The notes under the pieces: generated by a model | What the model was told of the DNA's origin: nothing | Seen by the model: the letters and a program-made list of their open reading frames with translations, nothing else | Database searches by the model: none | Shown: piece after piece, positions 2,060 to 33,519 of the stretch | Layout: each line of letters opens with the position of its first letter | How positions within the stretch are numbered: position 1 is the stretch's first letter | NCBI GenBank assembly: GCA_036264355.1 | Contig: DATARD010000080.1 | Span: 14,552 to 78,551 of the forward strand | Reading direction: 5' to 3' | Length of the DNA stretch: 64,000 nt | Source: Thermoanaerobaculia bacterium | GTDB lineage: Bacteria; Acidobacteriota; Thermoanaerobaculia; Multivoradales; UBA5704 | Made by a program: the position numbers and the translations under genes

Positions 2060-2580
2060 TGTAGTGAGTCTGATATTCGGTAACGTTATGCCGTAGCGAG
2101 GCAGAACCGCCGCTCCGGCTCCCGGCCAGCCTACCTGGCGCGTCATCCACCAAGTCTGGTCCGCTGTCGACCAAGCTTGGCCTCCGCCGGACCAAACTTG
2201 GTCGACGAGGAACCAGGCCCGGTGGACGACAGACCAAGCCTGGTGGAGCGCGGACCAGGGCTGGTGAATGTCCGACCAGATCCGGTGGACGGCAGGCCAA
2301 GCCTGGCGGGTGGCGGACCAGGCCTGGTGGCTTTCAGGCCAAGCTTGGTGGAGCGCGAACCGGGACTGGCGAACGAACGACCAGAACTGGTGGGCGACAA
2401 GCCAGGCTTGGCGGGTGGCGGACCAGGACTGGTGACGCGAACCAGGACTGGTTGACGGCAGACCAAGCCTGGTGAGCGACGGGTCGTGTCCTTACTCCCG
2501 CGAGCCATCCTGAGGGCGAAGCTCGCGAGCCGCCGCGGCAAAGAATCAAACGTTACCGAACATCAGACTCACTACACTAG
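2056..2580. mobile_element. MITE-like non-autonomous element: 32-bp terminal inverted repeats enclosing a 21-bp tandem array
   Basis: Left end CTAGTGTAGTGAGTCTGATATTCGGTAACGTT (2056-2087). Right end AACGTTACCGAACATCAGACTCACTACACTAG (2549-2580). These are reverse complements with 1 mismatch in 32. No transposase lies inside. The element starts exactly at the stop codon of the hypE fragment. Confidence 0.55.
2150..2483. repeat. Tandem repeat, 16 units of 21 bp, each with a palindromic core CCA(A/G)G(C)(C/T)TGG
   Basis: Unit starts were counted at 2150, 2171, 2192, 2213, 2234, 2255, 2276, 2297, 2318, 2339, 2360, 2381, 2402, 2423, 2442 and 2463. Example units are ccaagcctggtggagcgcgga and ccaggcctggtggctttcagg. 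Confidence 0.9.
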
Positions 2581-2670
2581 CTCTCGTCATCCAAGTGCCG
2601 CGTGAAATCTTTCAGCGGGCGATGCGTACTATGGGCAGGTGCTCCTCTCGCTCCCGTCAGGAGGCAATGA

Positions 2671-3345
2671 ATGATGGTCCGCGCGATCGACGAATCGCAA
2701 CGCAAGGCTGCAAGAGTCGTGGGCTGGGCGTACCTTCTCGCCATCCTGCCCGCGGTGTTCGCCGAGGCCGTCGCATCCGCATCGAATCTCATGGCGCACG
2801 AGCGGCTTTTTCGGCTGGGCACCGCCGCCAACCTGGCCACCTTCGCCCTCGACGTGGTGCTGATCACCTCTCTGTATGTGGTCCTGAAGCCGGTCAACCG
2901 GAACCTTGCCCTGCTCGCGACGTGCTGGGGGCTGATCGAGACGGCAATCCTCATGGTCGCGACGGTGAGTGACCTGGAGGCCCTCCGAATGTTGAGTGGC
3001 GCCGACTACCTGCATGTCTTTGAAGCCGATCGGCTGCAAGCCTTGGCAAGGCTCTCGATCAGCGCGCACGGCGCCGCCTATCACGTGGGTCTGGTGCTCG
3101 CCGGGCTGCGCAGCACGGTGTTTGCCTATCTGTGGCTCAAGTCCAACTTCATCCCGAAGCCATTGGCCGCTTGGGGAGTGTTTTCGTCCCTCCTGCTGGC
3201 GGCGTGCACGTACGCCTCCATTGTCTTCCCCGAGTTGGCGAAGGTCGTCACCGTCGCCTACTACGGGGGGCCGATCTTCATTTTCGAGCTGACGATGGGT
3301 TTTTGGCTTCTGTTCAAGGAGCTGCGTCCGGCCCCGGACGCCTGA
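2671..3345 (+). CDS. DUF4386-family membrane protein
   Basis: 224 aa, multi-TM. Paralogous to the next gene, with shared blocks LYVVLKPVNRNLALLA, SGADYL and LWLKSNFIPKPLAAWGV. Confidence 0.8.
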   Translation: MMVRAIDESQRKAARVVGWAYLLAILPAVFAEAVASASNLMAHERLFRLGTAANLATFALDVVLITSLYVVLKPVNRNLALLATCWGLIETAILMVATVSDLEALRMLSGADYLHVFEADRLQALARLSISAHGAAYHVGLVLAGLRSTVFAYLWLKSNFIPKPLAAWGVFSSLLLAACTYASIVFPELAKVVTVAYYGGPIFIFELTMGFWLLFKELRPAPDA

Positions 3346-3399
3346 TCGGCACTGATTGCCGCTCACCATTCTGATGCCCTACTCGAAAGGGAGGCCACC

Positions 3400-4131
3400 A
3401 TGGCAGATCGTCCGGTTGAAACGTCGCCGCAGGTGTATGCACGAGTCGGCGGTATTCTCTATCTGATCATCATCGCCGCCGGACTTTTCGGGGAGGCCTT
3501 CGTCAGGAACAAGCTGATCGTCTCCGGCGACGCGGCGGCCACGGCGCACAACATCATGGCCTCCCAGCCGCTGTGGCGCCTGGGCCTTGCCGGCGATCTG
3601 ATCATGCACATGTGCGATGTCCCCCTGACGATGATCTTCTTTGTGCTGCTGCGACCGGTCCAGAAAAACCTGGCCTTGCTGGCGGCGTTCTTCACCTTGG
3701 TGCAGACCGCTATTTTGTGCGTCAACAAGCTGAGCCTGCTGATCCCTCTGTTCCTCCTGGGAGGCGCGGACTATCTGAAGGCTTTCGATCCCCAGCAGCT
3801 CCAGGTTCTCGCTTATCTCTCGGTCAAGATGCACGGATACGGCTTTGGCGTCGGCCTCATCTTCTTTGGCTGCGCGTGCCTCGTCCTCGGGCACCTGATC
3901 TTCAGGTCGGGCTATCTGCCGAAAGCTCTGGGGATTCTGATGCAGATCGCCGGCGTGTGCTATCTGATCAATAGCTTTGCGCTGCTGGTCGCTCCCGCGC
4001 TCACGGACATCTTGTTCCCCGCGATCATGGCCCCTGCCTTCGTCGGGGAGCTGTCCCTTTGCCTGTGGCTCCTCGTAAAGGGGGTGAATGTCCCGAAGTG
4101 GGAGGCGAAGCAGGCGCTGATGCGACATTGA
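3400..4131 (+). CDS. DUF4386-family membrane protein
   Basis: 243 aa. YLIIIAAGLFGEAFVRNKLIVSGDAAATAHNIMAS...LLRPVQKNLALLAAFF...GADYLKAF...IFRSGYLPKALGIL matches my memory of the DUF4386 consensus closely. SD GGGAGG lies upstream. Confidence 0.85.
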   Translation: MADRPVETSPQVYARVGGILYLIIIAAGLFGEAFVRNKLIVSGDAAATAHNIMASQPLWRLGLAGDLIMHMCDVPLTMIFFVLLRPVQKNLALLAAFFTLVQTAILCVNKLSLLIPLFLLGGADYLKAFDPQQLQVLAYLSVKMHGYGFGVGLIFFGCACLVLGHLIFRSGYLPKALGILMQIAGVCYLINSFALLVAPALTDILFPAIMAPAFVGELSLCLWLLVKGVNVPKWEAKQALMRH

Positions 4132-4180
4132 CAGGCTTTGAGTTGGGCGAATACAGTCGGGCTGTCGAGGGTTTGCTCCG

Positions 4181-5401
4181 ATGCCGTTGCCCGACGATCC
4201 ACACGATCCAGACACCACCCGCCTCGTCCATCTCGTCGAGGAGCTTCTCCTCGAACGCAACCGCGTCTCGGCGGACTTCTTCCCGCGGGAGAGCAGGCGG
4301 CTGGCGACGGCGTGCCAGGCGATGGCCGAGCGCTTCCTGCGCGGCGGCCGATTGCTGGCTTTTGGGCGTGGGCAGTCTGCCACGGATGCGCAGCATGTGT
4401 CCGTCGAGCTCGTCCATCCGGTGATCGTCGGCAAGCGCGCCCTGCCGGCTCTCGACCTTTCGCTGTCTCCCGGGGGGTGGATCGACACGCTCGTCCGGCC
4501 GGACGACATGGTGATGGGCTTCGGGCCACCGCAGGGTGATGCGGAAGCGGAGGAGATCCTGCGGAGTGCGCAGCGGAAGGGTGCAATGACCTTCTCGCTC
4601 CCAGGGCACGAGGGCGACTACGCCGTCGCCGCGCCGTCCGCTGATCCGTACATCCATCAGGAGCTGATCGAGATCCTCTACCACACGCTGTGGGAGACCG
4701 TGCACGTCTTCTTCGAGCATCGCGAGCGTGGCCATGAGGTGGGCGCCTCCGCGTTCCTCTATCCGTTCCTCGGACAGGAGAAGCAGGACACGCACTCGGT
4801 GATCGCCGAGGCGGCGGCGTCGATCGAGATGAAGGCGCGCGATGACGAGACGTTGCGCGAAACCATCGCGAGCGGACAGGCCGAGGGGATCGTTGCCACT
4901 GCCGTGGCGATCCGGGAGCGCGTACGGGCCGGTGGCACGATTCTCGTCTTCGGCAATGGCGGCTCGGCGACCGATGCCAACGACTTTGCGCTCGACTGCT
5001 CGGTGCCGCTCAAAGGCTATCCACCCGTGCCGGCGATCTCGCTCGCCTTGGAGCCGGCAAACCTGAGCGCTGTCGCCAACGATATTGGTCCCGAGGCCAT
5101 GTTCCTGCGTCAGCTCATCGCTCAGGCCCGGCCGGCCCCCGCTTCAGACATTGCCCTCGGCATCTCTACCAGCGGCGGCTCGGCCAACGTCATCGCCGCG
5201 CTGGGCGAGGCGCGCAAGCGTGGCCTTCTCACCGTGGCACTGCTCGGCTACGACGGCGGCGAGATTGTCCGCCGCGGCCTGGCCGATCACACGCTGGTGG
5301 TGTCCTGCGACTACATTCCGCGGATCCAGGAGGTGCAGGCGTCGATCTATCATGTTCTGCTGGATGTTCTGGGAGAGCTGCGGCATGGCGACAAAAACTG
5401 A
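4181..5401 (+). CDS. Tandem SIS-domain protein (two GmhA/DiaA-like sugar-isomerase folds; N-terminal copy degenerate)
   Basis: The N-terminal half has RLLAFGRGQSATDAQHVSVEL but lacks the S-T-S-G loop. The C-terminal half has ILVFGNGGSATDANDFALD, ALGISTSGGSANVIAAL and IPRIQEVQASIYHVLLDVL, which are GmhA-like signatures. Confidence 0.8.
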   Translation: MPLPDDPHDPDTTRLVHLVEELLLERNRVSADFFPRESRRLATACQAMAERFLRGGRLLAFGRGQSATDAQHVSVELVHPVIVGKRALPALDLSLSPGGWIDTLVRPDDMVMGFGPPQGDAEAEEILRSAQRKGAMTFSLPGHEGDYAVAAPSADPYIHQELIEILYHTLWETVHVFFEHRERGHEVGASAFLYPFLGQEKQDTHSVIAEAAASIEMKARDDETLRETIASGQAEGIVATAVAIRERVRAGGTILVFGNGGSATDANDFALDCSVPLKGYPPVPAISLALEPANLSAVANDIGPEAMFLRQLIAQARPAPASDIALGISTSGGSANVIAALGEARKRGLLTVALLGYDGGEIVRRGLADHTLVVSCDYIPRIQEVQASIYHVLLDVLGELRHGDKN

Positions 5402-5615
5402 GCTGTTCGGCACCCGGAGCTGCCCCTGGACCGGCGAGCTCCGCGAGCACCTCCTCTGGGAAGATATTGATTTTGCAGAGCACGACGTCGAAGCCGACCC
5501 CGCGGCGCTGGCGCGGATGTTGGAGCTGACCGGCGGCCAGCGTTCGGTGCCGGTGCTGGTGGAGGACGGCCGCGTCAAGCAGATCGGCTGGCAGGGGCGG
5601 AGCTGCCTCGTTTGA
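5385..5615 (+). CDS. Glutaredoxin-like small protein (monothiol CPWT site)
   Basis: 76 aa: MATKTELFGTRSCPWTGELREHL...QRSVPVLVEDGRVKQIGWQG, with the thioredoxin-fold pattern C-P-x-x ... VP ... G. It overlaps the SIS gene end by 17 nt, and its TGA overlaps the hypF ATG (TGATG). Confidence 0.65.
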   Translation: MATKTELFGTRSCPWTGELREHLLWEDIDFAEHDVEADPAALARMLELTGGQRSVPVLVEDGRVKQIGWQGRSCLV

Positions 5616-8859: not shown

Positions 8860-8888
8860 TTGACATGCAGCACACGCAGGCATACGCT
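8860..8888 (+). promoter_or_regulatory. Candidate sigma70-type promoter for the two-gene module
   Basis: TTGACA (8860-8865), a 17-nt spacer, then TACGCT (8883-8888), which keeps T1, A2 and T6 of TATAAT. It would give a ~170-nt leader before the ATG at 9067. Sequence-only guess. Confidence 0.3.
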
Positions 8889-9066: not shown

Positions 9067-10332
9067 ATGCCATTCATAAGAAATTTCTGGCCGCAAAAGG
9101 GAAACTGCTTCGTCATGATGCCTATGGGTGTCCACAAGCGCGATGGGCAGGACTTCGACTGGGACGAGCACTATCGCGATGTCATTGAGGAAACAGTCAA
9201 AGGAGTTGGCATGACCCCTGTCCGTGCCGACGGAATCTACGGTGGCGGCATGCTCATCGAGAAATTGTGGCAGGGCATTCAAGAAGCCGAAGTGATCATC
9301 GCGGACCTAACGGGCCGGAACCCAAACGTTCTCTATGAAGTCGGACTGGCTCACGTCATCGGCAAGAGGATTCTTATCCTGACGATGAATACGGATGACG
9401 TTCCAGTCGACCTCGGGCAGTTCGCTCAGATTCAATATAAGGAAGGCAGGGGACTCCTGCAGCTTGCCCGCGACTTGGAGAGGCATCTCATCGCTGCACG
9501 CAAGGAGCCTCCGGCCGAGGCGATGCTCATGCCGCTCCGCGGAGCCGGCATCGAAGAGATCCCCGCCAAAGTCCTGTCCGTGATGGAGACATTCGCCATG
9601 GTCGAAGCCCGCGACGGTCGCAAGGGCTTCCTCAGCATTGAGGATTTCGCCTGGACTCGGAGACCAAGAGATCTCACGAGAGTTCTTCAACCAGGGAGAG
9701 AGGTCAAGGGTGCCTTTGTCGTCGATGCCAACGGTCAGCAGAAGTATTCGTTGGCATTTGGTGACAACCCGTGGCCCAAGCTCGAAAAGGACTTTCCTCT
9801 GGGGCACGTGTTTCGTGGCGAGGTCGTCAATGTCAAAGAGGGGATCGGTGCCTGGGTGAACATGAATTACGGAATCCAAGGGTTCATCCCTCAGAGTCAG
9901 CTTCCGAGAGATGTCATGACCGGGAGCGACGTCAAGGCCCGGGTCGTCGAGATCAATCAGGCGAAGCGCGAGGTGAGATTGCATTTCATCGAGAAACTTT
10001 CGGGAGAGTCAGGGAAAATCGACCCGACGTGGCCATTCCGCAGGGGGCAGATGTTTGAGGGCCGCGTCGACAAGATGGCCCCCGACCGAGGCTTTGCCTT
10101 GATCAGGGTCAGCCATGAGGAGAGACAGATCACCGGAATCCTTCCTCAGGTCAAGATGACTCCCATGCTCCGCGACCGCTTCGTCAATCAGGATCTGAGA
10201 GTTGGTGATCCTCTGATGGTCGAAGTCTTGGATGTCGACCCAGCCCGGCAACGGATTTCTTTCCGCGATCGGCCTTTCGGCGAGATCGTCATTCCTCAAC
10301 CTCAGGTCGACATGCTCCAACCTGCGCACTAA
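9067..10332 (+). CDS. Nucleoside 2-deoxyribosyltransferase/TIR-like Rossmannoid domain fused to three S1 RNA-binding domains (421 aa)
   Basis: ATG at 9067 is preceded by GAGGAAA. N-terminus: CFVMMPMG...YRDVIEETVKGVGMTPVRAD...AEVIIADLTGRNPNVLYEVGLAHVIGKRILIL, an NDT/Rcl-like pattern with candidate catalytic E91. S1 domains lie at ~165-232, ~246-307 (GHVFRGEVVNVKEGIGAWVNMNYGIQGFIPQSQL...VKARVVEINQAKREVRL) and ~326-401. Lower GC than the flanks. Confidence 0.85.
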   Translation: MPFIRNFWPQKGNCFVMMPMGVHKRDGQDFDWDEHYRDVIEETVKGVGMTPVRADGIYGGGMLIEKLWQGIQEAEVIIADLTGRNPNVLYEVGLAHVIGKRILILTMNTDDVPVDLGQFAQIQYKEGRGLLQLARDLERHLIAARKEPPAEAMLMPLRGAGIEEIPAKVLSVMETFAMVEARDGRKGFLSIEDFAWTRRPRDLTRVLQPGREVKGAFVVDANGQQKYSLAFGDNPWPKLEKDFPLGHVFRGEVVNVKEGIGAWVNMNYGIQGFIPQSQLPRDVMTGSDVKARVVEINQAKREVRLHFIEKLSGESGKIDPTWPFRRGQMFEGRVDKMAPDRGFALIRVSHEERQITGILPQVKMTPMLRDRFVNQDLRVGDPLMVEVLDVDPARQRISFRDRPFGEIVIPQPQVDMLQPAH

Positions 10333-10342
10333 GGAGAAAACC

Positions 10343-11794
10343 ATGGGTCAGTCACCTGTCGTAACAGTCGGCGCCAAGCGCACGATGGAGTACGTTTTGG
10401 GTTGCCTGTCGTTGTTCAACCGGGGCGCCGAGGAGCTGGACCTGGTCTCGGTAGGTGACTGCATCTCGAAAGCGGCCGAGGTCTACCGGATTCTCAGCAC
10501 GAGCTTCGGGACCAGCTTGGAGGCGGCGGACATCACTCCGCTCCACTCCGGCGAAGCGGTCTTTGCCCGCTCGTCGTTCCACCTTCGGCGTGCCGCCTCC
10601 GCCGGTGTCGATCTACAGCCCTGGTCGACCGGCGACAGTCAGTTCGTCAGCTTCCCGGTCTATCAACTTCTCCTCGATCACCTGCTGGCGACACAGGGGC
10701 AGATCGTGATCGGCGCTTCACAAGGGCGAAGCCTGCTTCGGATCACCTCCACGGACGGCGGCTTCGTGTGCCGCGGCGGCGAGGACCTCGACATCACGCT
10801 TGACGGAACACGCCAGGATGAAAAGAAAAAGAGTCCGCGCGAGTTGGTGACGGAGGCTATGGCTCGGACGGGCTTCCTGCTGTCGGACCGCTGGCGCGAG
10901 GTCGCTGGCCGGCTCGGGCAGTTCGACGACATCGTCCTTGGGCTGGACACCAACATCCTGTATGGCTGCGTCATTACGCAACAGATCCTCGACTCTCTGG
11001 TCTTCACCTGCCATTCCAATGCATCGCCCAACTGGATTCTCTTGGTGGTGCCCAGCACCGTCATGCACGAGCTCGAGCAGGCGGCCAACGGCCGCGATGA
11101 GAAGGGGGAGCTGAGCCTCAGCGGGAGAATGGGATACCGGGCCTTGCAGGAGATTCTCGAGCTCGACCTGGCCAAGGACATCCGAGGAGTCAGCTTGCTG
11201 ATCGCAGGCGAGACCGATCCGATCCTCGATGCTCGCGTCGAGCTGCGAGCGCTTCGCGGCGACGTCCAACGGACCGCGCCGCAGGGCACCCGTTTCCTGC
11301 CCAGGAATTCGTTTGGCGATACGCTGATCCGCGATCAGTTCAAGGGATTCCTTCGCCAGCTCAGCTACCACAAGGGTGCGTTTTTCCTCACGGCTGACAA
11401 GTCGAACAGCGCTCTCGGTCAGGCGGAGGGGCTGCATTCTCTCTATGTGCCGCCGCCGAATGGACGGAGAGCGATCAGCTCGGGAGTCGACCTGGCTCCC
11501 CCACCGGTCAGGTTCGACGAGCAGAACATCTCGATGAACGTGCCGATCGGAAAGATCGTCTACGAGATGGCAGTGCAGTTCGGATCGATCTTTCTGTCGG
11601 GGAACGGGACCTCGATCAAGGTGGGCTGTGACGCGCGCGGCGACTCCTTGGAGCACTGGCTCAAGAGGGAGCTGATCATCGATCAGCTAGATGTTCGGAA
11701 GTTGCTGGCGCACTACCCTCAGTCCGAACGAGTGTCCCTTGAGCAGGCGGAGGCTACCTGGGATACCGAAAACAAGATGGCCATGTCCTGGTAG
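10343..11794 (+). CDS. Alba-like domain fused to a PIN-domain nuclease (483 aa)
   Basis: ATG at 10343 lies 10 nt after the previous stop, with AAGGAG 6 nt upstream. Residues 5-55, PVVTVGAKRTMEYVLGCLSLFNRGAEELDLVSVGDCISKAAEVYRIL, track archaeal Alba (Sso10b) motif for motif. Residues ~195-370 are a PIN domain with the acidic set in LGLDTNIL, VVPSTVMHELEQ, FGDTLIRD and FLTADKSN, closest to the YlaK/PhoH-associated PIN type. Confidence 0.85.
   Translation: MGQSPVVTVGAKRTMEYVLGCLSLFNRGAEELDLVSVGDCISKAAEVYRILSTSFGTSLEAADITPLHSGEAVFARSSFHLRRAASAGVDLQPWSTGDSQFVSFPVYQLLLDHLLATQGQIVIGASQGRSLLRITSTDGGFVCRGGEDLDITLDGTRQDEKKKSPRELVTEAMARTGFLLSDRWREVAGRLGQFDDIVLGLDTNILYGCVITQQILDSLVFTCHSNASPNWILLVVPSTVMHELEQAANGRDEKGELSLSGRMGYRALQEILELDLAKDIRGVSLLIAGETDPILDARVELRALRGDVQRTAPQGTRFLPRNSFGDTLIRDQFKGFLRQLSYHKGAFFLTADKSNSALGQAEGLHSLYVPPPNGRRAISSGVDLAPPPVRFDEQNISMNVPIGKIVYEMAVQFGSIFLSGNGTSIKVGCDARGDSLEHWLKRELIIDQLDVRKLLAHYPQSERVSLEQAEATWDTENKMAMSW

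Positions 11795-11818: not shown

Positions 11819-11833
<15 letters not shown>
11800..11833. terminator. Possible bidirectional hairpin between convergent genes
   Basis: ATGCGGATGGAG (11800-11811) pairs with CTCTACCCGCAT (11822-11833) at 10 of 12 positions around a 10-nt loop. It spans the ACC-like stop codon. There is no clear U-tract. Confidence 0.3.
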
Positions 11834-16774
<4,941 letters not shown>

Positions 16775-16803
16775 CCTTCCGGGCTCCAAGAGCCCTTGTA
16801 TGC

Positions 16804-17343
16804 TCACAAGGCTCCCATCGCGGCTTGCAGGGGCGCCAGCCGTTCGGGATCGATCCCTCCGGGCAGCTCGACGGTGCGGTAGCCGGTGAGAGTCACATAG
16901 AGGTTGCCCTCGTCGTCGACCACGTCGGCGTCCACCGCGCCGTCGTCCTCCCGGGTCCGGGCGACCGCGGTGAGCCGTCCGCCGTTCCCCGGGCGCAGCC
17001 GGCTGACCCGGTCGACGTGCAGCGGCAGGGCCATCTTGCCATGAGTCCCCAGCTCGCCGACGCCCGCGGTCTGGAAGCATAGCTCGATGAGCCGCGGCTC
17101 CATCAGCGTCGGCCTGTCCTGCGGCTGGTGGTCAGGCGGCAGCGCGTCCGCCATCCGTCCGGCGACGCCGTCGCCCGACCGCCAGGCGCTCTCCATCACC
17201 TGATAGGCCGGACCATGGAAGTAGATGCGGTAGATGTCCTCGGCGCCGACGCCCGGGGCATCGGGGTGCCGCCCCCCCGCGTAGTGTTGCGGGGGTGGGT
17301 CGGGAGCCGCGTTGCGGCAAGGATTTACGACGATTCGCGGCAT
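16804..17343 (-). CDS. Stand-alone hotdog protein resembling the C-terminal half of a PKS dehydratase (PS-DH) domain
   Basis: 179 aa from ATG 17343: IYRIYFHGPAYQV...PRLIELCFQTAG...LPLHVDRVSRL...VVDDEGNLYVTLTGYRTVEL. The FHGPxFQ-like and LxxxFQ motifs are typical of the second hotdog of PS-DH. It ends 30 nt upstream of the ACC-like start. Confidence 0.65.
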   Translation of the reverse strand: MPRIVVNPCRNAAPDPPPQHYAGGRHPDAPGVGAEDIYRIYFHGPAYQVMESAWRSGDGVAGRMADALPPDHQPQDRPTLMEPRLIELCFQTAGVGELGTHGKMALPLHVDRVSRLRPGNGGRLTAVARTREDDGAVDADVVDDEGNLYVTLTGYRTVELPGGIDPERLAPLQAAMGAL

Positions 17344-17347
17344 GCCG

Positions 17348-17765
17348 GACGTGGCGGTCGTGCAGGGTGGCGTCACGGTCGCACGCAGTGGCGTGGCGGT
17401 CGTGCGCACGACCGCGATGGCCGTGCGGGCGACTGTGACCGTCGAGCGCACGGCTCTGACAGCAGAGCGGACGACGGTGAGGGCCGCGCGCGCGGCAGTG
17501 ACAGTCGTGCGTGCGACAGTGACGGTCGTACGTGCGGCAGTGACAGTCGTGCGTACGACAGTGACGGTCGTGCGTGCGACAGTGACGGTCGTACGTGCGA
17601 CAGTGACGGTCGTACGTACGACAGTGACGGTCGGGCGTGCGACGGTGAGTGTCGTACGTGCGGAGTGAGTGTCGTGCGTGCGGCAGTGACGGTCGTGCGT
17701 GCGGCAGTGACGGTCGTGCGGAAGGCTGTGACAGTCGTGCGGAGCGGCATGACCGTCGCACCGGC
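17348..17765. repeat. Tandem repeat, ~20 units of 21 bp (consensus ACAGTGACGGTCGTGCGTGCG)
   Basis: The core units from 17495 are near-identical (gcagtgacagtcgtgcgtgcg, acagtgacggtcgtacgtgcg ...). Units from 17348 to 17494 are progressively degenerate but keep the phase. The array fills almost the whole divergent intergenic space. Confidence 0.9.
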
Positions 17766-17813: not shown

Positions 17814-18128
17814 ATGCTGACTGAGGGGGTTCGACAAGAGATCCGTAGCCGGCTGGGCGCTGTTTTTCATGAGCGCCTCCGGGGAGTCCTCCTCTATGGC
17901 TCCGAGGCTCGGAACGAGGCCCAGGCGGGTAGCGACGTGGATCTCATGGTCTTGCTGGATGGGCCTGTCCGGCTCAGCCGGGATCTGGACACAATCGTGG
18001 AAGCGCTCTACCCGGTCCAACTCGAGATCGACGCTCCCATCCATGCCACACCGATCTCCGCGGAGACCTTCGAAGCGGGGGAGTGGGGTGTATACCGCAA
18101 CGCGCGGCGGGAAGGCGTCTTTCTGTGA
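17814..18128 (+). CDS. Minimal nucleotidyltransferase (MNT) antitoxin
   Basis: 104 aa with VLLYGSEARNEAQAGSDVDLMVLL (GS-x10-DxD NTase motif). SD GGGAGGA lies upstream. Confidence 0.85.
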   Translation: MLTEGVRQEIRSRLGAVFHERLRGVLLYGSEARNEAQAGSDVDLMVLLDGPVRLSRDLDTIVEALYPVQLEIDAPIHATPISAETFEAGEWGVYRNARREGVFL

Positions 18129-18514
18129 CGCCCGAGGTCTCCGACTACTGGCTCCGTGCGGTTCAGGCGCTTCGGACGTCGGAAGCCCTGGTGGAGGCAG
18201 ATCCGGACGCCTCAGCTTCGCGGGCCTACTACGCGGCGTTCTACGCGGTCTCGGCGCTGTTCGCCTTCCAGCAACAGAGTTTTACAAAGCATACGGCCGT
18301 GGAACAGGCCGTCCATCGCGATCTCGTCAAGCCGGGTCTCTGGCCTGTTGAAGCGGGGAGAGCTTTCTCCTGGCTTGCCAGCCTTCGGTATACCGGCGAC
18401 TATGGAGGGCGTGATCACGTGCTCCCCGACGACGCCAAGAGCGCGGTGGAGAGGGCACGCCTCGTCCTCGAAACGGTTCGGAAGACTGCTCCTGAAGCCC
18501 TGCTGGACCTTTGA
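18125..18514 (+). CDS. HEPN-domain toxin partner of MNT
   Basis: A GTG start overlaps the MNT stop (GTGA). Helical protein with AYYAAFYAVSALF and LASLRYTGDYG, HEPN-like. The MNT-then-HEPN gene order is the canonical one. Confidence 0.8.
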   Translation: MTPEVSDYWLRAVQALRTSEALVEADPDASASRAYYAAFYAVSALFAFQQQSFTKHTAVEQAVHRDLVKPGLWPVEAGRAFSWLASLRYTGDYGGRDHVLPDDAKSAVERARLVLETVRKTAPEALLDL

Positions 18515-28700: not shown

Positions 28701-28767
28701 CGCCAAGAAGGCGGGGCGCAACCGGGTGGTGGCGGGCGATGCGGAGGGTGTCCCAACCGCAAAGTAG
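25756..28767 (+). CDS. Membrane sensor diguanylate cyclase (periplasmic two-component-regulator propellers + Y_Y_Y domain, TM, coiled coil, GGDEF)
   Basis: Signal/TM at the N-terminus. Y_Y_Y-like segment LRYQTRIDPIDADWSRP...GSYTFRVRTVG. TM helix WALALWMVAAVLLVIGY. GGDEF domain with DELTGIANRR, RGHREGD, an active-site variant GGEEL, and an RTSD I-site 5 residues upstream of it. Confidence 0.9.
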   Translation: MRPRTAPRLSGAVCCWLLLAGSFAAAAATVAEPGAAERGFPLIQTYNAISQGGETQNFGIARDPQGLLYLANGGGLLVYDGAWWREIPIGKEGGAFSVASDATGRVAVGGFDDFGLLMPDDHGSLQYVSLLSLLPPEQRELDQVMETTPVADGFLFLTGKALLLWDGSHVSVLARFPGDRPFPATFRVGSDIYLWWRDGLSRIDGRRIEPVPGGAVFAGRRVDQILPAGERPDQGLLVSVRGEGLFLFSRGTAMPFAPEASRWTAAKRLMPKAGRRLPDGRWALGSILGGLLLLRPDGAVDQVIDTAVGLPDNFITGAETDLEGSLWLALNNGLARVEVASPVSVIDRRAGLQGNVYALVRFRGDLWIATSAGLFTVDHRPRAAAEPGPPVRMREVPGLPPSVWSLLAVDDDLLVGTAFGLYRVTSGGTAEPVPGGRQQTVYVLARSRRDPRRIWLGGEDGLSAVHRDGNGWRFEGSIEAVHREVRSIVEGDTGTVWCGLQDRAVGVDVAPQPRTLQVLRARSVPDSDGVSLLWLAGRILAARDGRLLRLDEERGLLGADPATAALQARAQNFVADAAGNLWISSRPPAVALRRTGRPGGWSPELRPLLGLPVHTIEAILAEPDGVVWLAADNGLFRYADSFRAVAAPLPAPLLSRITLGAGTLVFGGAPGVAPTRVVLPPNVRHLRIEIGPLSFNAGLRYQTRIDPIDADWSRPTTDPFAELTRLPSGSYTFRVRTVGPSGEASPETAWPFRVRPPWYLTGWALALWMVAAVLLVIGYSRLRSRALRQRAALLEARVAEQTLELRHTVEELSRAHAELEVANERLEELSLRDELTGIANRRRLQQMLNEEWNRARRYERPLAFILLDLDHFKLLNDTRGHREGDVCLQTIAHHLAEMLRRTSDLVARYGGEELAVLLPSTDLAGALKIAEELRQGIEDLALPHEAAPTGHVTASFGVAAMVPASGQTPDVLVEAADLALYGAKKAGRNRVVAGDAEGVPTAK

Positions 28768-28803
28768 TGGAGAGACTGTGCCTCGGCCCGCCGCGCGAAG
28801 GCG

Positions 28804-28858
28804 CATTGTGGAGGTTCAACGGCCCGTTGTGGAGGTTCAACGGTCCGTTGTGGAGAAG
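28804..28858. repeat. 2.6 copies of a 21-bp tandem repeat (CGTTGTGGAGGTTCAACGGYC)
   Basis: cattgtggaggttcaacggcc / cgttgtggaggttcaacggtc / cgttgtggagaag. The stop codon and last codons of the minus-strand gene lie inside copies 2-3. Confidence 0.8.
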
Positions 28859-29427
28859 ACTCGCGCGAGAAGCTCGACGACCTCACGGTTGACGGCTTCA
28901 TCTCCGGTGCCCTCCCGCAACGCCGCCGTTGCGGCGCCCATCTCGCGCAGCCGGGCCTCCGCGTTGCTCGGTGGTATCGCCAGAGCAGCCGTGGCGTGAG
29001 ACAAGGCCTTGAGATCGGCGACCCATTCTGGATGGTACATGGTGCCCAGATGGCCGGCGATCTTCGCCGCCAGGAGCGCAAGGTCCAGGGCTTGGCTCTC
29101 CCCCTGGTCCAGGATGGCCCGCGCCCGCTCCAATGCGACCCAGGCAACGCCCCAGGTCTGAAAGTCCGTCTCTTCCTCGACCTGGGCGGCCCAGCTTGCG
29201 GGGTCTGTCGCCAGCAAGGCGTCGAGCAGGCCGTCGGCGACAAGCCCTTCGACGACGACAACCTCGGGATTCCAATGACGGAAGCGCTTCATCAGTGCCT
29301 CCACCTCCGCGAGCCGTTCGCCGCAGTCCGGGCAGACCTCGGCCAGATGGCGGCAGCACTCCTCGGCCTCCTCCCCCGCGGCGGCGGCCAGCAGAGATGC
29401 GATCTTGGCTGTCGTCAGATGTCTCAT
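28837..29427 (-). CDS. zf-HC2-like (H-x3-C-x2-C) helical protein, putative anti-sigma/regulatory
   Basis: 196 aa with CCRHLAEVCPDCGERL near the N-terminus. Paralogous to the N-terminal ~190 aa of the divergent gene at 29864 (FQTWGVAWVALERAR vs FQTGELFETILTESR). Confidence 0.65.
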   Translation of the reverse strand: MRHLTTAKIASLLAAAAGEEAEECCRHLAEVCPDCGERLAEVEALMKRFRHWNPEVVVVEGLVADGLLDALLATDPASWAAQVEEETDFQTWGVAWVALERARAILDQGESQALDLALLAAKIAGHLGTMYHPEWVADLKALSHATAALAIPPSNAEARLREMGAATAALREGTGDEAVNREVVELLARVFSTTDR

Positions 29428-29632
29428 CTCATCCCTCTTCCCTGGATAACTCGCCCCGCCGGCTTGTCGCCAAAACGATCTGCCGATGCAGGTCGAGAAG
29501 ATGACATGCGTCCTCCCGTCAACCTTGAAAGGAAGGATGCCAAAAGCCCAGACTCCAGAAGGGGAAAATTTTTACGGCTGGGTCACTCCCTGACCCAGCC
29601 CCGTCAAGCCTCCCCAGAAAGGCAGTGTTCTT

Positions 29633-29758
29633 ATGCGTGGATTCCTGCAGTTTCTCCGGGCGTTTTTCTCGATGGCTCAAAGCGATGCGGTCAGCATCTG
29701 GGACCCGAACGGGAAGCCGAGCCCGGATGCGGTGACCACCATCGACCCGAACGGCTGA
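29633..29758 (+). CDS. Candidate 41-aa small ORF (MRGFLQFLRAFFSMAQSDAVSIWDPNGKPSPDAVTTIDPNG)
   Basis: ATG-to-TGA ORF below the track cutoff, ending 27 nt before a strong intrinsic terminator. SD is weak. It could equally be a non-coding transcript. Confidence 0.25.
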   Translation: MRGFLQFLRAFFSMAQSDAVSIWDPNGKPSPDAVTTIDPNG

Positions 29759-29784
29759 GGGGCTCGCAAGGCACCTTTTCTTGT

Positions 29785-29823
29785 GGAGGGCGGAGAAAGC
29801 TCCCGCCCTCCCCCTTCTTTTTG
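29785..29823 (+). terminator. Rho-independent terminator
   Basis: GGAGGGCGG (29785-29793) pairs perfectly with CCGCCCTCC (29803-29811) around a 9-nt loop. It is followed by CCCTTCTTTTTGG. Confidence 0.7.
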
Positions 29824-29835
29824 GCGCGTTTGCGG

Positions 29836-29841
29836 TATAGT
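29836..29841 (+). promoter_or_regulatory. -10-like box TATAGT upstream of the 29864 gene
   Basis: TATAGT lies 22 nt upstream of the ATG, with AGGAGGA between them. The -35 is weak. Confidence 0.3.
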
Positions 29842-29863
29842 GCGATCCAGGAGGAGCTTAGAG

Positions 29864-31237
29864 ATGGATCGGCATATTTCTAAAGAGGAGATTGTTCGCG
29901 CCTTCTCTGGAGAGGCTTCTCAACCCGACGTGGTCTACGCCGTGCCGCATTTAAGCCACTGCCGGTTGTGCTGGAATTCGGCGGCCAACGTGATCTCCCA
30001 GCTCAAGCGTGAGGGCCGCCTGAAGAGATTCGGCGACGGCCGGGCGGCCATCGTCGCCCTGGTCGAGGAGGAGGGAAGAAGGACAGCCCGGCTCATGAGG
30101 GCTCGAGCCTGGTGGGAGGAGTTGGCGGAATTGGGCCCGACAGAACAGATCGAAAGGGTTAAACTTGTCGGTGCGTTCCAGACAGGCGAGCTGTTCGAGA
30201 CGATCCTGACGGAGTCTCGCTCAGTCTGGGGCAGTGATCCCTACCTGGCGGAGCATTCGGCATTGACCGCGCACTTCCTGGTCGACCATCTGCCCGGTGC
30301 GCAATTCTCCGAGCTTACCAAGAACAGGTACAAGGCGGCAGCCATGAGCGTGGCAGGCAACAGCCGCCGGCTGATGGGAGATTGGCTTGGCTCGGCCGCG
30401 GCTTTTGGCGCAGCCAGGAACTACCTAAAGGACAACATGGATACCTTGGAGGAAGCCGCCCTGCTTTCAGTGCAAGCGTCGCTGGACTGCGACAAGGGTA
30501 ACGTTGAGGCGGCTTCCGGCCTGCTGGCGAGAGCGGCGGCCATTTACGAGAAGGCTGGCCACAAAGGTGAGTTGGGTAAAATGCTCGTTCAGGAGGCGCA
30601 GGCACTCTTTATCGCCAACGCGTTCGACAGGGCCATCGGTAAGGCAGAAGAGGCGCTCCTGCTTCTTCCGCCATTCAGTGTCTTTCTTGTGGCGTCCGCG
30701 AAAAGTCTCGTCACAGAAAGCCTGGCTATGACAGATCGCGTGGACGAAGCAGTCCGGAACTTCGAGGAGACGCGCCATCTCTATGAGGAGCTCGGCGAGG
30801 ATTTCAAACTTCAATCTCTTCGGCTTCAAGCTCGACTTTTGGATGGGCTTGGCTCGGCGCGTGAGTCCGAAAAGCTCTTTCGGAAGGCCATCAAGGGCTT
30901 TTCTGACAAAGAGCTCTACAAGGATGCGTTTCTCGCCCGGCTCGCGCTCCTGGAATCCCTCTTCAAGAGAGATGCTGTTCTGAAAGCGGAGCGGCTCTGC
31001 GAGGAGGCGATCGACCAGCTTCAGAAGACGGAAAGAATTCACTCGCAGATCATCAAGGTCTGGCAAGGCCTCCTGTCTCACATCCAATCTCAGCGGCTCA
31101 AAATCTATCACCTCGCAGAGGTAAGGGATTACCTGGCGCGGCACTGGGCAATACCCGCCGCGCGGCCACCGTTCTCCTCCGGATCTGGTTTTCCAGGAAG
31201 CGGCGTGACGGCTCCCCGGCTGCCGGGTCGCGATTGA
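29864..31237 (+). CDS. zf-HC2-like N-terminus + TPR-like helical repeat protein (457 aa)
   Basis: ATG is preceded by AGGAGGA. PHLSHCRLCW (H-x3-C-x2-C) is followed by a long all-helical repeat region. Visibly lower GC than its neighbours. Confidence 0.7.
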   Translation: MDRHISKEEIVRAFSGEASQPDVVYAVPHLSHCRLCWNSAANVISQLKREGRLKRFGDGRAAIVALVEEEGRRTARLMRARAWWEELAELGPTEQIERVKLVGAFQTGELFETILTESRSVWGSDPYLAEHSALTAHFLVDHLPGAQFSELTKNRYKAAAMSVAGNSRRLMGDWLGSAAAFGAARNYLKDNMDTLEEAALLSVQASLDCDKGNVEAASGLLARAAAIYEKAGHKGELGKMLVQEAQALFIANAFDRAIGKAEEALLLLPPFSVFLVASAKSLVTESLAMTDRVDEAVRNFEETRHLYEELGEDFKLQSLRLQARLLDGLGSARESEKLFRKAIKGFSDKELYKDAFLARLALLESLFKRDAVLKAERLCEEAIDQLQKTERIHSQIIKVWQGLLSHIQSQRLKIYHLAEVRDYLARHWAIPAARPPFSSGSGFPGSGVTAPRLPGRD

Positions 31238-31298
31238 CCGAACAGAACGGACGCCCTAGTCGTCTGTCAACGCAGAGCCGTAGGGTGCGCTTTGCGCA

Positions 31299-31397
31299 GC
31301 CGCCGACCACGCCGCGGCGTTCGCGGGCGCCGGGTCAGACCCGACGCACCCGCGGGCCAACAATCGTTGAACCTGACGAACGATCTTTGACTCCATG
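31299..31397 (+). repeat. Left copy of a ~90-100-bp direct repeat; relic of an NmrA-like gene 3' end
   Basis: GCCGCCGACCACGC(C/A)GCGGCGTTCG, then ATCGTTGAACCTGACGA(A/G)CGATCT, then ACTCCATG, is shared with 34352-34436 (with indels). In the NmrA frame it reads AADHAAAFAGAGSDPTHPRANNR*, versus AADHAAAFGVGNDR* at the real gene end. Confidence 0.6.
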
Positions 31398-31420
31398 CGC
31401 GAGCAGAGCCGCCCATAGCG

Positions 31421-32224
31421 TCACACCGCTGGAACTGTGCCGCCGTCGATGACATATTCGCTGCCGTTGATGGAGGCTGCCCGGTCGGAGACGAGGAATG
31501 CGACCAGCTCTGCCACCTCTTCGGGCCTGCCGGGCCGGCCGATCGGGATGCCGCCGAGCGAATCCATCAGTCCCTGACGGGCAGCGGCTTCGTCGGTGCC
31601 GGCCTTTTCCGCAAGGCGGGAGATCAGGCGATGGGCGGCTGCGGTTTCGATAAAACCGGGCGCGACGGTGTTGACCCGAATGCCCTTGGGTCCAAGTTCC
31701 TTCGACAGCCCCTTGCTATACGTGGTCAGCGCGGCTTTGGCGGCCGCGTAGGCGAGCGTCGCCTCGAACAGCGGCAGCCGCCGCTGAATCGATGAAATAT
31801 GGATGATGACTCCGGATCGCTGCTTCAGCATCCCGGGAAGGAATGCGCGGTCGAGCCGAACGGCAGGGAAAAGATTGAGATCGATCTCCTTCTGCCAATC
31901 CTCGTCTGTGAGCGCGAGCACGCCACCGCTCGGCGCACTCGAGCCGCCAACGACGTTGACCAGTATGTCGAGACCGCCGAAGCGCTGGAGCACTTGCTCT
32001 GCCACCCTGTCCACGCCTTGGCGCGTGCTGATGTCGGCCTGAACGAACAATTCCACCGCTTGCCCTTCAGGCAAGGGTGAGCGCGCGGTCGTTGCAACCG
32101 TTGCGCCGCTGACGACAAGACGTCGCACGATGGCTGCTCCCATACCGTCGGTGCCGCCGGTGACGAGTACGCGCTTGCCGGCGAATTCCGCAGGGTCGAA
32201 CGAAAACCGCGGCGCCGAGCCCAT
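31421..32224 (-). CDS. Short-chain dehydrogenase/reductase (SDR)
   Basis: 267 aa: [16 protein letters not shown] (TGxxxGxG), NVVG, and YAAAKAAL (YxxxK). Confidence 0.9.
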
Positions 32225-32553
32225 CAGCTGATCTCCAGACGTTCGATCTGTCCGCCATTCAGGGTGAAGGCATAGCGAAGCTCGATCGGACTGCCAGGGA
32301 AATTGCCCGAGATCCTGCCGGTCACAATCGTCCTGCCGTTCGTCTCGGCAACGTCGAGCGCCTCGACCGTCGGATGATATTTCTCGCTCACCTCCTCGGC
32401 CCACCTGCGGATGGCGGCAATGCCTCGCCGCTCTCGCTTCTCGTCGTGGACGACGGCACCTTGGCTGAAGCATGCCGCCACCGCATCGATGTCTTGAGCG
32501 TTCGCCGCCGCAATGTAGGTTGCAATCGGTGGCGCAAGTTTTGTGGTTGGCAT
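32224..32553 (-). CDS. SnoaL/NTF2-like small protein
   Basis: 109 aa from [38 protein letters not shown], a typical SnoaL-like N-terminus. Its stop overlaps the SDR start by 1 nt. Confidence 0.7.
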
Positions 32554-32607
32554 ATCGTTCCTTTGCTGTGCGTTGCCTCGCCCTGAGAATGGGACTACGC
32601 TAACCAA

Positions 32608-33018
32608 ATGACAAGTACGCACGAAAAAGTAAGTCGCTCACCTGAGGGTAAGCGCGCTGAGCACACGCCGATTTCTGCGGCGCAGGCGATAGAGCAAGCG
32701 CTCAAACTCGTCGAAGGCCGCTGGAAGTTGCTGATCCTGTTTCATCTGTTTGGCGGCAAGGTCCTGCGCTTCTCCGACCTGGAGCGCGCGATTCCGGCGA
32801 TCTCCCAAAAGATGCTCGCGCAGCAGCTTCGCCGGTTGGAGGCCGACGGCGTCGTGCAGCGAATCGTCCACAACCAGGTGCCGCCGAAGGTGGAGTACTG
32901 CCTCACGACGTGGGGGCAGTCGCTATGTCCAGCGCTCGACGCGCTGCTGAAATGGGCCGGGATGCGCGGCGTGGGCACCGGCTCAGCCGTGATCGGGCGG
33001 TCCGAATCAGGTGGTTAG
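32608..33018 (+). CDS. HxlR-family winged-helix transcriptional regulator
   Basis: LVEGRWKLLILFHLFGGKVLRFSDLERAIPAISQKMLAQQLRRLEADGVVQR...PPKVEYCLT. Divergent from the SnoaL-SDR operon. Confidence 0.85.
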   Translation: MTSTHEKVSRSPEGKRAEHTPISAAQAIEQALKLVEGRWKLLILFHLFGGKVLRFSDLERAIPAISQKMLAQQLRRLEADGVVQRIVHNQVPPKVEYCLTTWGQSLCPALDALLKWAGMRGVGTGSAVIGRSESGG

Positions 33019-33079
33019 GGCGTCACGAAGGCCCTGGTCCGTGCCGTCTCCGACTCACGCGACGTATCCGTCGGGAGGG

Positions 33080-33519
33080 CCGGACGGGAGGGAGCGCGAG
33101 CCGGACGGGAGGGAGCGCGAGCCGGACTGGAGGGAGTGAGAGCCGGACTGGAGGGAACGATAGCCGGACTGGAGGGAACGAGAGCCGGACTGGAGGGAGT
33201 GAGGACCGGACTGGAGGGAGTGAGAGCCGGATGGAGGGAACGAGAGCCGGACTGGAGGGAAGGAGGACCGGACTGGAGGGAACGAGGACCGGACTGGAGG
33301 GAGCAAGGGCCGGACTGGAGGGAGCGAGGGCCGGACTGGAGGGACCGAGAACCGGACTGGAGGGAGTGAGAGCCGGACTGGAGGGAGCGAGGACCGGACT
33401 GGAGGGAACGAGAGCCGGACTGGAGGGAACGAGGGCCGGACTGGAGGGAGCGTGAGCCGGACTGGAGGGAGCGAGGACCGGACTGGAGGGAGCGTGAGCC
33501 GGATGACGGGGAGCGAGAG
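33080..33519 (+). repeat. Tandem repeat, ~21 units of 21 bp (CCGGACTGGAGGGAGCGAGAG), purine-rich on + strand
   Basis: Units start at 33080, 33101, 33122 ... 33499. One unit (33227) is 20 nt. Every unit carries GGAGGGAG (SD-like). The last unit, ccggATGacggggagcgagag, supplies the NmrA-like start codon. Confidence 0.9.

Follow-up and report, generated by a model that had tools for sequence, protein, structure and literature searches.

A stretch of 64,000 nt (the window) from the genome of an uncultured soil acidobacterium (a Thermoanaerobaculia MAG of 8.8 Mb) contains four tandem arrays that differ in sequence, but share a unit length of 21 bp. Twenty-one base pairs amounts both to seven codons and to two turns of B-DNA. 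The original prediction proposed either a common generating mechanism with a fixed step or selection for helical or reading-frame phase, and considered chance less likely. Here, we asked what keeps the unit at this length.

The four arrays and their surroundings

Tandem Repeats Finder (TRF) recovered all four arrays in the window, at 2199–2474, 17350–17741, 28806–28855 and 33075–33525, showing that they are real. When the best rotation and the best strand were taken for each pair, the units differed at 10–12 of 21 positions, equal to the null for shuffled units (mode 11), and the absence of mutual similarity was thereby confirmed. Each of the four units nonetheless has a multi-copy family elsewhere in the genome. 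Only one other tandem repeat, of four 9-bp units, had been noted in the window; it is indeed present (61475–61512), but two more were found, a 36-bp repeat of 1.9 units at 58580 (70 bp), the sole further array of at least 60 bp, and a 22-bp repeat of 2.7 units at 61959, spanning 59 bp. From the genome-wide density, about 1.6 long arrays would be expected in the window, compared to the three long and one short array present. The units are strictly contiguous in all four arrays, with no unique spacers between repeats, and a CRISPR array was rejected on this basis. No strand is assigned to any of the arrays, nor to the element that encloses array 1.

Array 1 (2150–2483) consists of about 16 irregular 21-bp units with a palindromic core of the type GACCA(N4)TGGTC and a 105-bp higher-order unit. 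The TRF limits (61% matches) are narrower than the span of ≈2150 to 2483 over which units can be followed by eye. The array is strongly self-complementary (z = −4.7 and −7.1 relative to shuffles), and units of its type, similar to family 49, occur in 12 other arrays. Inverted repeats of 31 bp (2058–2088 and 2549–2580), found both by eye and by search, enclose it in a 523-bp element (2058–2580) that fills the gap between the HypE and DUF4386 genes. The genome has just two copies of this element, the second of which (C415:2030–2310) comprises an arm, a linker and an array of the same family; no clear target-site duplication was found for the element. In the syntenic contig L218, the HypE–DUF4386 gap instead holds a small gene and a different array. 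Inverted flanks are rare, occurring at 2–3 of the 204 arrays examined, array 1 included.

Array 2 (17350–17741; ≈19 units of ACAGTGACGGTCGTGCGTGCG, 79% matches) is located in a divergent gap between a carboxylase gene, starting at 17080 on the minus strand, and a nucleotidyltransferase/HEPN pair (17814–18514) identified through Pfam. The start codon at 17343 had been taken as the end of a coding region, but the ORF is a product of the array itself, and is interrupted by a 20-nt unit near 17660; the real neighbours start at 17080 and 17814. The unit belongs to family 18 (six arrays), which is related to family 20 (26 arrays). Array 3 (28806–28855; 2.4 units of CGTTGTGGAGGTTCAACGGCC, 96% matches) sits in a convergent gap past a GGDEF gene (stop at 28767) and, as had been noted, reaches a coding end at 28837, where it overlaps the final codons of a minus-strand ORF (28837–29427). 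Although array 3 is short, its family (family 29) totals 57 units in arrays elsewhere, for example the 16.7 units at C154:13662–14013. Array 4 (33075–33525) contains 21.5 purine-rich units of CCGGACTGGAGGGAGCGAGAG (87% matches) between an HxlR gene (32608–33018) and an NmrA-like gene. The start codon pointed out at 33503 is likely a genuine ATG, supplied by the degenerate last unit of the array; the Pfam match to NmrA/NAD_binding_10 begins ≈8–12 codons past it. The unit of array 4 belongs to family 87, with five arrays, three of them at contig ends, and an independent contig (L161), which is 99.97% identical, ends within the array.

Period spectrum and coding status

Genome-wide, the TRF spectrum is dominated by periods of 21, 42, 63, 84 and 126 bp. 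Periods were assigned by autocorrelation to the 255 non-coding arrays ≥100 bp long, yielding 21 bp in 134 arrays, 22 in 18, 20 in 2, 42 in 52, 41 in 4, 63 in 5, 84 in 5 and 126 in 4. Thus, 154 arrays have periods of 20–22 bp and 70 have multiples (41/42, 63, 84 or 126 bp), with other periods almost absent, and higher-order units of 42, 63, 84 and 126 bp are found within arrays. A genome-wide period spectrum had been proposed as the test; its overwhelming peak at 21 bp and multiples excludes chance, and a common cause that is tied to unit length and independent of sequence is needed. In all, the 20–22-bp lattice or its multiples account for at least 224 non-coding arrays ≥100 bp long, totalling 59 kb, or 0.67% of the genome and 3.3% of the DNA outside called genes.

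We considered the possibility that the peak was an artefact of de Bruijn assembly (k = 21) or of TRF detection. In codon-shuffled genes, chance TRF matches do peak at period 21 (64 of 227), making short, low-score 21-bp matches unreliable, and 21 contig ends fall inside such arrays. However, the same control produced a single match of at least 80 bp and none of at least 100 bp. The imperfection of the units (60–92% matches) and their higher-order structure are features that graph loops are unable to generate, and the arrays recur both in independent assemblies (L161; L212 and L213) and in relatives assembled into 1–4 contigs (G011 and G024). An artefact is thus most improbable. Comparison of array copy numbers had been suggested as a check. 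Two short-read assemblies of one array, L215 and L216, are identical save for a clean 252-bp block of exactly 12 units, which fits in-register growth or shrinkage by unequal recombination or replication slippage, but could also reflect assembly collapse.

The ordinary explanation for such a period would be heptad (7-aa) repeats in expressed proteins, as seven codons make 21 bp. Long open frames do cross the arrays (e.g., 17312–17668 and 32910–33455), and a separate class of 126-bp repeats falls in called genes. The open frames, however, are a by-product of units that are free of stops, and ≈90% of the long period-21 arrays fall outside the genes predicted from codon usage; the caller is crude (79% coverage), and some of the “non-coding” assignments may be wrong. 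Moreover, arrays are found between convergent stops and extending into real start codons, and the 18 non-coding arrays with 22-bp units, the two with 20-bp units and the frame-breaking 20-nt units speak against selection for reading-frame phase. With neither a real gene nor a kept frame in the arrays, membership in coding heptad repeats was rejected, and we give this explanation practically no credence. The 21-bp period is a property of the DNA and not of the reading frame. The enrichment of period 21 over the codon-shuffled null in actual coding DNA is no greater than that of periods 15, 18 or 24, and after subtraction of the chance peak of TRF at 21 no excess remains. Of the proposed mechanism with a fixed step, the common, length-linked cause stands, while a generator acting on any DNA is unsupported in coding regions.

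The arrays favour the 3′ ends of genes, at a median distance of 137 bp. Their flanking genes are convergent in 48 cases, co-directional in 75 and divergent in 19, compared to 280, 794 and 301 background gaps, respectively. With 26 arrays in the same sense as the transcription of their neighbours and 20 in the opposite sense, the arrays have no strand bias. The array edges are degenerate and the end phases variable; a search for conserved non-repeat flanks or fixed end phases of the arrays found neither.

Known repeat systems and a small protein family

Tandem repeats of constant size (20–21 nt) and variable sequence were previously catalogued in bacteria by Subirana and Messeguer (J Bacteriol 2020, 202:e00229-20; IJMS 2021, PMC8161180). 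The arrays described here resemble them in having units of 20–21 (±1) nt, many unrelated families per genome, a non-coding location and lineage-specific families. All of these defining features are found here, and we assign the arrays to this class because the constant 20–21-nt size and the variable sequence match. Arrays of 40–42 nt likewise occur alongside, and two helical turns are named there as the only common factor. The class itself, of which the original prediction was unaware, is thus already in print (PMC8161180). Acidobacteriota and Thermoanaerobaculia are not named in the accessible text of those papers, and the density is ≈8 times greater here (at least 224 arrays, compared to 27–29 in the richest Bacillus; PMC8161180, Table 4), albeit with different search criteria. 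New relative to the published repeats are the preference for 3′ ends, the lack of single units and the linked protein family. We conclude that the four arrays are very probably non-coding minisatellites, four of at least 224 with units locked to 21 bp (20–22) or whole multiples in ≈90 families, and that they represent the Subirana and Messeguer class in a new phylum at unusually high density. Array 1, a short-unit array between terminal inverted repeats (TIRs), also resembles BrickBuilt, a minisatellite inside a MITE of Porphyromonas gingivalis (PMC4596501), but differs in the scarcity of inverted flanks and in being present as two copies only.

Arrays on the same lattice were found in five genera of the same family, while other families of the order are largely without them. 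When the 16 largest unit families were compared to 60 relatives, only weak matches were detected, mostly to two families, in 14 of the 60; the lattice arrays of relatives carry other unit sequences, i.e., the families are lineage-specific.

The REP/BIME and REPIN elements of proteobacteria are short, often palindromic intergenic units that are enriched at 3′ ends and in convergent gaps, lie in either orientation and number hundreds per genome, and the arrays are similar in all these respects. REPs, however, occur singly or as inverted pairs, whereas the 21-bp units are strictly head-to-tail, with 0–6 matches outside arrays compared to 4–84 inside, and many families are not palindromic; the arrays thus lack the dispersal as single units or inverted pairs that marks these elements. 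Iterons and plasmid centromeres (R6K, RK2 and pSC101; sopC and parC) are direct repeats set about two (or four) helical turns apart, a spacing that aligns the bound proteins on one face of the DNA. Each replicon has one or a few such arrays, of a single sequence, beside the gene for the binding protein. The shared two-turn spacing makes them the best precedent for a helical-phase constraint, but here there are >200 chromosomal arrays of ≈90 sequences with no rep or par gene seen adjoining. The neighbours in the window (HypE/DUF4386, carboxylase and MNT-HEPN, GGDEF, and HxlR/NmrA) include no Rep/ParB-type gene, a neighbour enrichment test of the arrays returned no rep or par families, and an iteron or centromere array was rejected. 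In type III toxin–antitoxin systems (ToxI/ToxN), an array of 2–6 units of 34–45 nt precedes a toxin gene whose product has an endoRNase fold. A short array is linked to one small gene here as well, with a terminator in between, but the array is downstream, has 21-nt units, up to 25 of them, and the protein is a three-helix bundle.

This small gene encodes an uncharacterised family of 135-aa proteins, predicted as a plain three-helix bundle without an enzyme-like fold, whose tail is basic and rich in proline; no Pfam, PHROG or PDB relative was found. An array lies downstream in 9 of the 14 local copies and, among relatives, in 10 of 20, compared to 4.9% for all genes, at a distance of ≈60–450 bp and with a sequence that differs from copy to copy. 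A terminator-like hairpin stands between the small gene and its downstream array in L218. Of the 37 genomes from the array-bearing family, 33 carry 2–42 copies of the gene, compared to none of 24 from sister families; only ≈4% of the arrays adjoin it. It is conceivable, if doubtful, that the protein and the arrays form one lineage-specific system, in which the protein would coat or organise any DNA with a two-turn repeat, or the cassette would seed arrays. If so, this would be the first protein partner named for the constant-size bacterial satellites.

What may hold the unit length

Unrelated sequences share the two-turn lattice, which has been reported from distant phyla as well. From this we tentatively suggest that the unit is most likely held at 21 bp by a constraint, rather than solely by common ancestry. 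Selection for helical phase, as originally suggested, would be one such constraint, two-turn phase being the sole property left in common. Taken as a whole, the reading of the arrays as minisatellites of a known class on a two-turn lattice held by constraint is, on balance, probable. The most plausible form of the constraint, which we propose only tentatively, would be a putative protein that packs side by side on one helix face at two-turn pitch, in which case only in-phase units might be tolerated or useful. The lattice also admits periods of 20 and 22 bp, which counts against this reading. Conservation within the unit is uneven by position, but the higher-order repeats confound it, and no binding core can be derived from it.

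The lattice could instead come from a generator that measures length, whether an enzyme or a mobile cassette, and that copies DNA in two-turn steps or deposits arrays as it moves, most arrays being orphans; its vehicles would be the small-gene-plus-array cassette or TIR-bounded carriers. The second copy of the array 1 element, the excess of arrays of varying sequence behind the small gene, and the scattering of same-family arrays to as many as 26 loci, while units are practically absent outside arrays, are all consistent with this. However, 21-bp duplications are not in excess in coding DNA, neither conserved non-repeat flanks nor fixed end phases were found, TIRs and small genes each accompany few arrays, and a three-helix bundle is not enzyme-like, making such a generator rather improbable. 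A function at the RNA level, one of two ideas put forward by Subirana and Messeguer (PMC8161180), would have the arrays transcribed as strings of 21-nt hairpins serving as small RNAs, protein sponges, 3′-end stabilisers or terminators. Palindromic cores are enriched (stems of at least 5 bp in 28% of units, compared to 14% of shuffled units), folding of arrays 1 and 2 is much stronger than that of shuffled sequences (z = −4.7 to −7.1), gene 3′ ends are close by, and array 4 places 21 GGAGG motifs in a 5′ leader. Still, we consider this function unlikely: the arrays show no orientation preference, many families are unstructured on both strands, array 4 among them (z = −1.3 and −0.1), an Rfam search of the window gave no match, and the hairpin in L218 divides the small gene from its array.

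Shared descent alone has a lesser but appreciable probability. In such a “satellite library”, one or a few 21-bp ancestors would have drifted in sequence, while in-register recombination kept their length, with no protein or function involved, and the arrays would be tolerated junk at 3′ ends. The units sort into ≈90 families (91 by average linkage), yet pairs at ≤7 mismatches are ≈10 times commoner than in the null, and single linkage at ≤5 mismatches joins 125 of 290 arrays. Some families group into related superfamilies (18 with 20, and 87 with 88), and a weak GGCGGAC motif was also seen. With many units akin in this way, the uniform period could in part be inherited. The 3′-end bias without orientation is typical of neutral or selfish repeats, and the degenerate edges and varying end phases also favour descent. 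Against it, the four units of the window, like most pairs of families, differ from one another as much as expected under the null, and Gibbs alignment of 66 family representatives revealed no universal skeleton (information content 6.9, compared to ≈6.1 for the null). Furthermore, unrelated repeats in Firmicutes, Cyanobacteria and Actinobacteria are reported to share the 20–21-nt size (PMC8161180), which argues for convergence on length.

Tandem arrays in the window

Tandem Repeats Finder (TRF) recovered all four of the period-21 arrays in the window, and the unit sequences and approximate copy numbers of the original prediction agreed with our reading of the sequence. Array 1 (2199-2474; 61% matches) combines the 21-bp period with a higher-order period of 105 bp, array 2 spans 17350-17741 (79% matches), array 3 consists of 2.4 units at 28806-28855 (96% matches), and array 4 of 21.5 units at 33075-33525 (87% matches). 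The four units are indeed mutually unrelated, since the distance between their consensus sequences (10-12 differences in 21 positions, taking the closest rotation and strand) equals the mode of the shuffled-unit null. In the genome-wide clustering of units described below, array 1 belongs to family 49, array 2 to families 18/20, array 3 to family 29 and array 4 to family 87. The only other window repeat of ≥60 bp found by TRF is a 36-bp unit in 1.9 copies at 58580 (70 bp), and a 22-bp repeat of 2.7 copies, spanning 59 bp, is located at 61959. The window had no match to any Rfam family.

Three of the arrays had been placed at the ends of coding regions. Array 4 does reach the start codon at 33503, an ATG with which an NmrA-like gene probably begins. 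Array 3 lies in a convergent gap and extends over the terminal part of a minus-strand ORF (stop at 28837), but the ORF itself is weak; a metagenome scan with the array 3 flank gave no match. The start codon at 17343 turned out to belong to an ORF made by array 2 itself. The true neighbours of this array are a carboxylase gene (11819-17080, minus strand, with its start at 17080) and a nucleotidyltransferase/HEPN pair at 17814-18514. The carboxylase, a single chain of 1753 aa, unites biotin carboxylase, biotinyl, ACC_central and carboxyltransferase domains in a layout like that of eukaryotic acetyl-CoA carboxylase, and it is adjoined by a 520-aa protein (10232-11794) with a weak Alba-domain hit. 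The nucleotidyltransferase (NTP_transf_2/Polbeta) and HEPN genes, which overlap at their ends directly downstream of array 2, have the same layout as MNT-HEPN toxin-antitoxin pairs.

Array 1 is carried by a 523-bp element between 31-bp inverted repeats, a second copy of which is found on contig C415. A general MITE model was nevertheless rejected, because the inverted arm of array 1 occurs at only 3 places and inverted flanks at only 3 of 204 arrays. The metagenome locus L218 shares synteny with the beginning of the window. In the gap between HypE and DUF4386, L218 has a gene for a small protein (see the last section), a terminator-like hairpin and an array, while in the window this position is taken by the TIR-bounded element that carries array 1. 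Two copies of the hypE 3' end occur in the window, at 1-34 and 1879-2059 (97% and 91% identical to L218, respectively). The 1.8-kb insert between these copies (35-1878; 55% GC) looks like an insertion at the hypE end, and its sole long ORF (97-1809, minus strand, 570 aa) had no hit in Pfam or PADLOC.

Period spectrum and coding status across the genome

A genome-wide survey of repeat periods had been proposed as a check, and was carried out on the whole assembly (8.82 Mb in 424 contigs, 67.5% GC). TRF yielded 1426 non-overlapping arrays, for which the top periods at a score of ≥150 were 42 (50 arrays), 63 (43), 21 (39), 84 (33) and 126 (13). For each array of ≥100 bp outside called genes, the period was then re-derived by autocorrelation, independently of TRF. 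This gave periods of 21 (134 arrays), 22 (18), 20 (2), 42 (52), 41 (4), 63 (5), 84 (5) and 126 bp (4), with other periods appearing as scattered single cases. A strong excess at 21 and its multiples is thus present among non-coding arrays, and chance was rejected as the source of the shared period, as was an assembly artefact as the source of the arrays. Altogether, 224 non-coding arrays fall on this lattice of periods (20-22 bp or multiples), covering 59.5 kb, or 0.67% of the genome and 3.3% of the DNA outside called genes. Short-read assembly is interrupted by the arrays: 21 contig ends fall within arrays of the lattice, and the true number of arrays must therefore be above 224.

Genes were called from codon usage, trained on long ORFs of high GC3 with the arrays masked, resulting in 5236 genes that cover 79% of the genome. 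Overlap with called genes was below 20% in 90% of 195 long period-21 arrays. Frame-breaking units of 20 nt occur within arrays, for example near 17660 and 33227, and arrays with periods of 20 and 22 bp are also present. These three observations reject reading-frame phase, one of the two kinds of selection originally suggested, as the cause of the shared length. The arrays do give rise to long spurious ORFs. A distinct set of 126-bp repeats, mostly coding, stands apart from the non-coding lattice. These arrays are 0.5-1.6 kb long (C353:4273-5920, C216:18287-19891, C131:38148-39560 and others), many of them within called genes, and they are probably 42-aa protein repeats, a separate phenomenon that merely shares the factor 21.

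We also ran TRF (settings 2 5 7 80 10 50) on codon-shuffled versions of all called genes, which contain no real repeats. This control produced 227 hits at the same threshold, with a peak at period 21 (64 hits, compared to 36 at 18 and 25 at 24). Low-score 21-bp hits are thus partly a detection artefact: their counts are inflated in GC-rich coding DNA, where the chance peak of TRF can fake a signal. In the control, however, a single hit reached 80 bp and no hit reached 100 bp, and the result for long arrays therefore stands.

Repeats of this kind have been catalogued in bacteria, with sizes of 20-21 nt in many groups and 52 nt in Firmicutes (PMC8161180). They are described there as non-coding, with several species-specific families per genome and relatives of 40-41 nt. 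The arrays described here display every defining feature that was tested and are therefore a new member of this class: non-coding minisatellites of constant size and variable sequence. The phylum Acidobacteriota is not named in the texts surveyed, and the array density here is about eight times that of the richest Bacillus genomes in Table 4 of the catalogue, a comparison between searches with different criteria (PMC8161180). Among the cases described in the literature surveyed, the lineage is a very rich one, with at least 224 arrays and about 90 families.

Unit families and the shared unit length

Average-linkage clustering of the units gave 91 families, the largest comprising 26, 16, 15, 12 and 12 arrays. 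Close unit pairs were about 10 times as frequent as in the null, and superfamilies therefore exist. A universal skeleton was rejected: Gibbs alignment of 66 family representatives had an information content of 6.9, compared to about 6.1 for the null, and the sole motif it returned, GGCGGAC, was weak and limited to one superfamily. Hairpins are likewise enriched without being shared by all units. Palindromic stems of ≥5 bp were found in 28% of units, compared to 14% of shuffled units, and arrays 1 and 2 fold much better than shuffles (z of -4.7 to -7.1), but array 4 is unstructured (z of -1.3 and -0.1). Per-position conservation was significantly uneven in 70 of 113 arrays, but this is confounded by higher-order repeats, and a binding core derived from it was rejected.

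The units are virtually confined to arrays, with practically none outside. The flanks contain no conserved non-repeat sequence, such homology as there is consisting of degenerate units or paralogous neighbour genes; end phases vary, and neither a fixed end phase nor a target-site duplication was seen. Flanking genes were convergent at 48 arrays, co-directional at 75 and divergent at 19, against 280, 794 and 301 background gaps of ≥300 bp (chi-square estimated at ≈18), and arrays lay a median of 137 bp from a gene 3' end and 269 bp from a 5' end. Array orientation was random with respect to neighbouring transcription (26 same, 20 opposite). L215 and L216, one metagenome locus in different samples (positions 4317-4815), are identical save for a clean 252-bp block of exactly 12 units, which is either a copy-number polymorphism or an assembly collapse, both assemblies being short-read. 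Within the genus, where genomes share ≈71-75% nucleotide identity, orthologous empty sites are not comparable. One array, of family 38, contains a ≈370-bp low-GC element (C314:16297-16837) with inverted ends (TCGTGTCCTAA..GTGTGGGTG). The element harbours a small gene, and the Cys-rich peptide encoded there, with a leader of the GG type (MKKSVKKLVLSRETLHALNENDFPKVNGG...), resembles the precursor of a bacteriocin or RiPP.

That unrelated bacterial satellites share a unit of 20-21 nt has called for an explanation since 2020, and the literature surveyed names neither a mechanism nor a partner protein. Two possible ideas, a protein polymerising on the DNA or small RNAs, are put forward in the catalogue (PMC8161180). 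Any model has to be consistent with a phenomenon that is DNA-level, orientation-free, confined to tandem arrays and biased towards gene 3' ends. A general mutational bias was rejected: real hits in coding DNA outnumbered codon-shuffled hits by a factor of 2.5 at period 21, compared to 3.4 at 15, 3.2 at 18 and 2.6 at 24, and nothing therefore indicates that DNA is generally duplicated in 21-bp steps. The main rival holds that the unit length was simply inherited within a satellite library. We prefer the explanation that the 21-bp size would reflect a two-turn helical constraint, which a DNA-binding factor may set.

Distribution in relatives and genes next to arrays

The arrays are found throughout the genome and also in other members of its family. 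When the 16 largest unit families were combined into one query, 14 of 60 relatives gave matches, nearly all of them from the same family. When relatives were sampled by TRF (200-400 kb each), arrays with periods of ≈21 bp or multiples, built from other unit sequences, were found in genera g1, g2, g3, g5 and g7 of this family. No more than one doubtful array each turned up in g10, another genus, and in three other families within the order, while one further family (f11) had arrays with periods of 63 and 126 bp. Close relatives thus provide negative controls, with g10 and the sister families largely free of arrays.

Among genes flanking arrays above expectation in the host genome, a small unannotated protein family was the most strongly enriched, the others being a TPR-regulator family (14 of 63) and TIR and Uma2 genes. 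The small gene is found in the regions C269:10555-11514 (with a gene copy at 10555-10965), C284:26714-27546, C353:38386-38955, C417:7411-8579, C192:17005-17971 and elsewhere in the host genome, and at the metagenome loci L212-L241. A lattice array starts ≤450 bp past the stop codon in 9 of 14 assessable host copies, 3 further copies being at contig breaks; an array of 450-550 bp follows the gene at 6 of 7 distinct metagenome loci, and an array follows 10 of 20 copies in five related genomes. The background for all genes is 4.9%. The adjoining arrays have periods of 21 or 42 bp, and their unit sequence changes from one copy of the gene to another.

The protein has 125-138 aa and the motif ..AAKQ(D/E)xSK..HYGxRSEKLVEFGLQPFR. 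Structure prediction (pLDDT 75.5) gave a bundle of three helices and a disordered tail that is basic and proline-rich. Searches of Pfam, PHROG, PDB sequences and Foldseek returned no relative, and PADLOC gave only weak, sub-threshold LmuB coiled-coil hits (E of about 6e-4). Within the array-bearing family, 33 of 37 genomes have the gene (2-42 copies), the four without it all belonging to g10, and it is absent from all 24 genomes of sister families. Its spread mirrors that of the arrays, although a single clade may just happen to have both traits. The small gene is next to only about 4% of arrays, and we therefore regard the link as a lead rather than an explanation. The gene represents a candidate linked family that is amenable to expression and testing in E. 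coli.

The TPR (MalT-like) family, of ≈450 aa, has 67 genes in the host genome, including one in the window at 29783-31237. About 14 of these adjoin 21-bp arrays, and a 21- or 42-bp array lies ≤600 bp downstream in about 13 of the 67; several have repeats with a period of 60-72 bp upstream.
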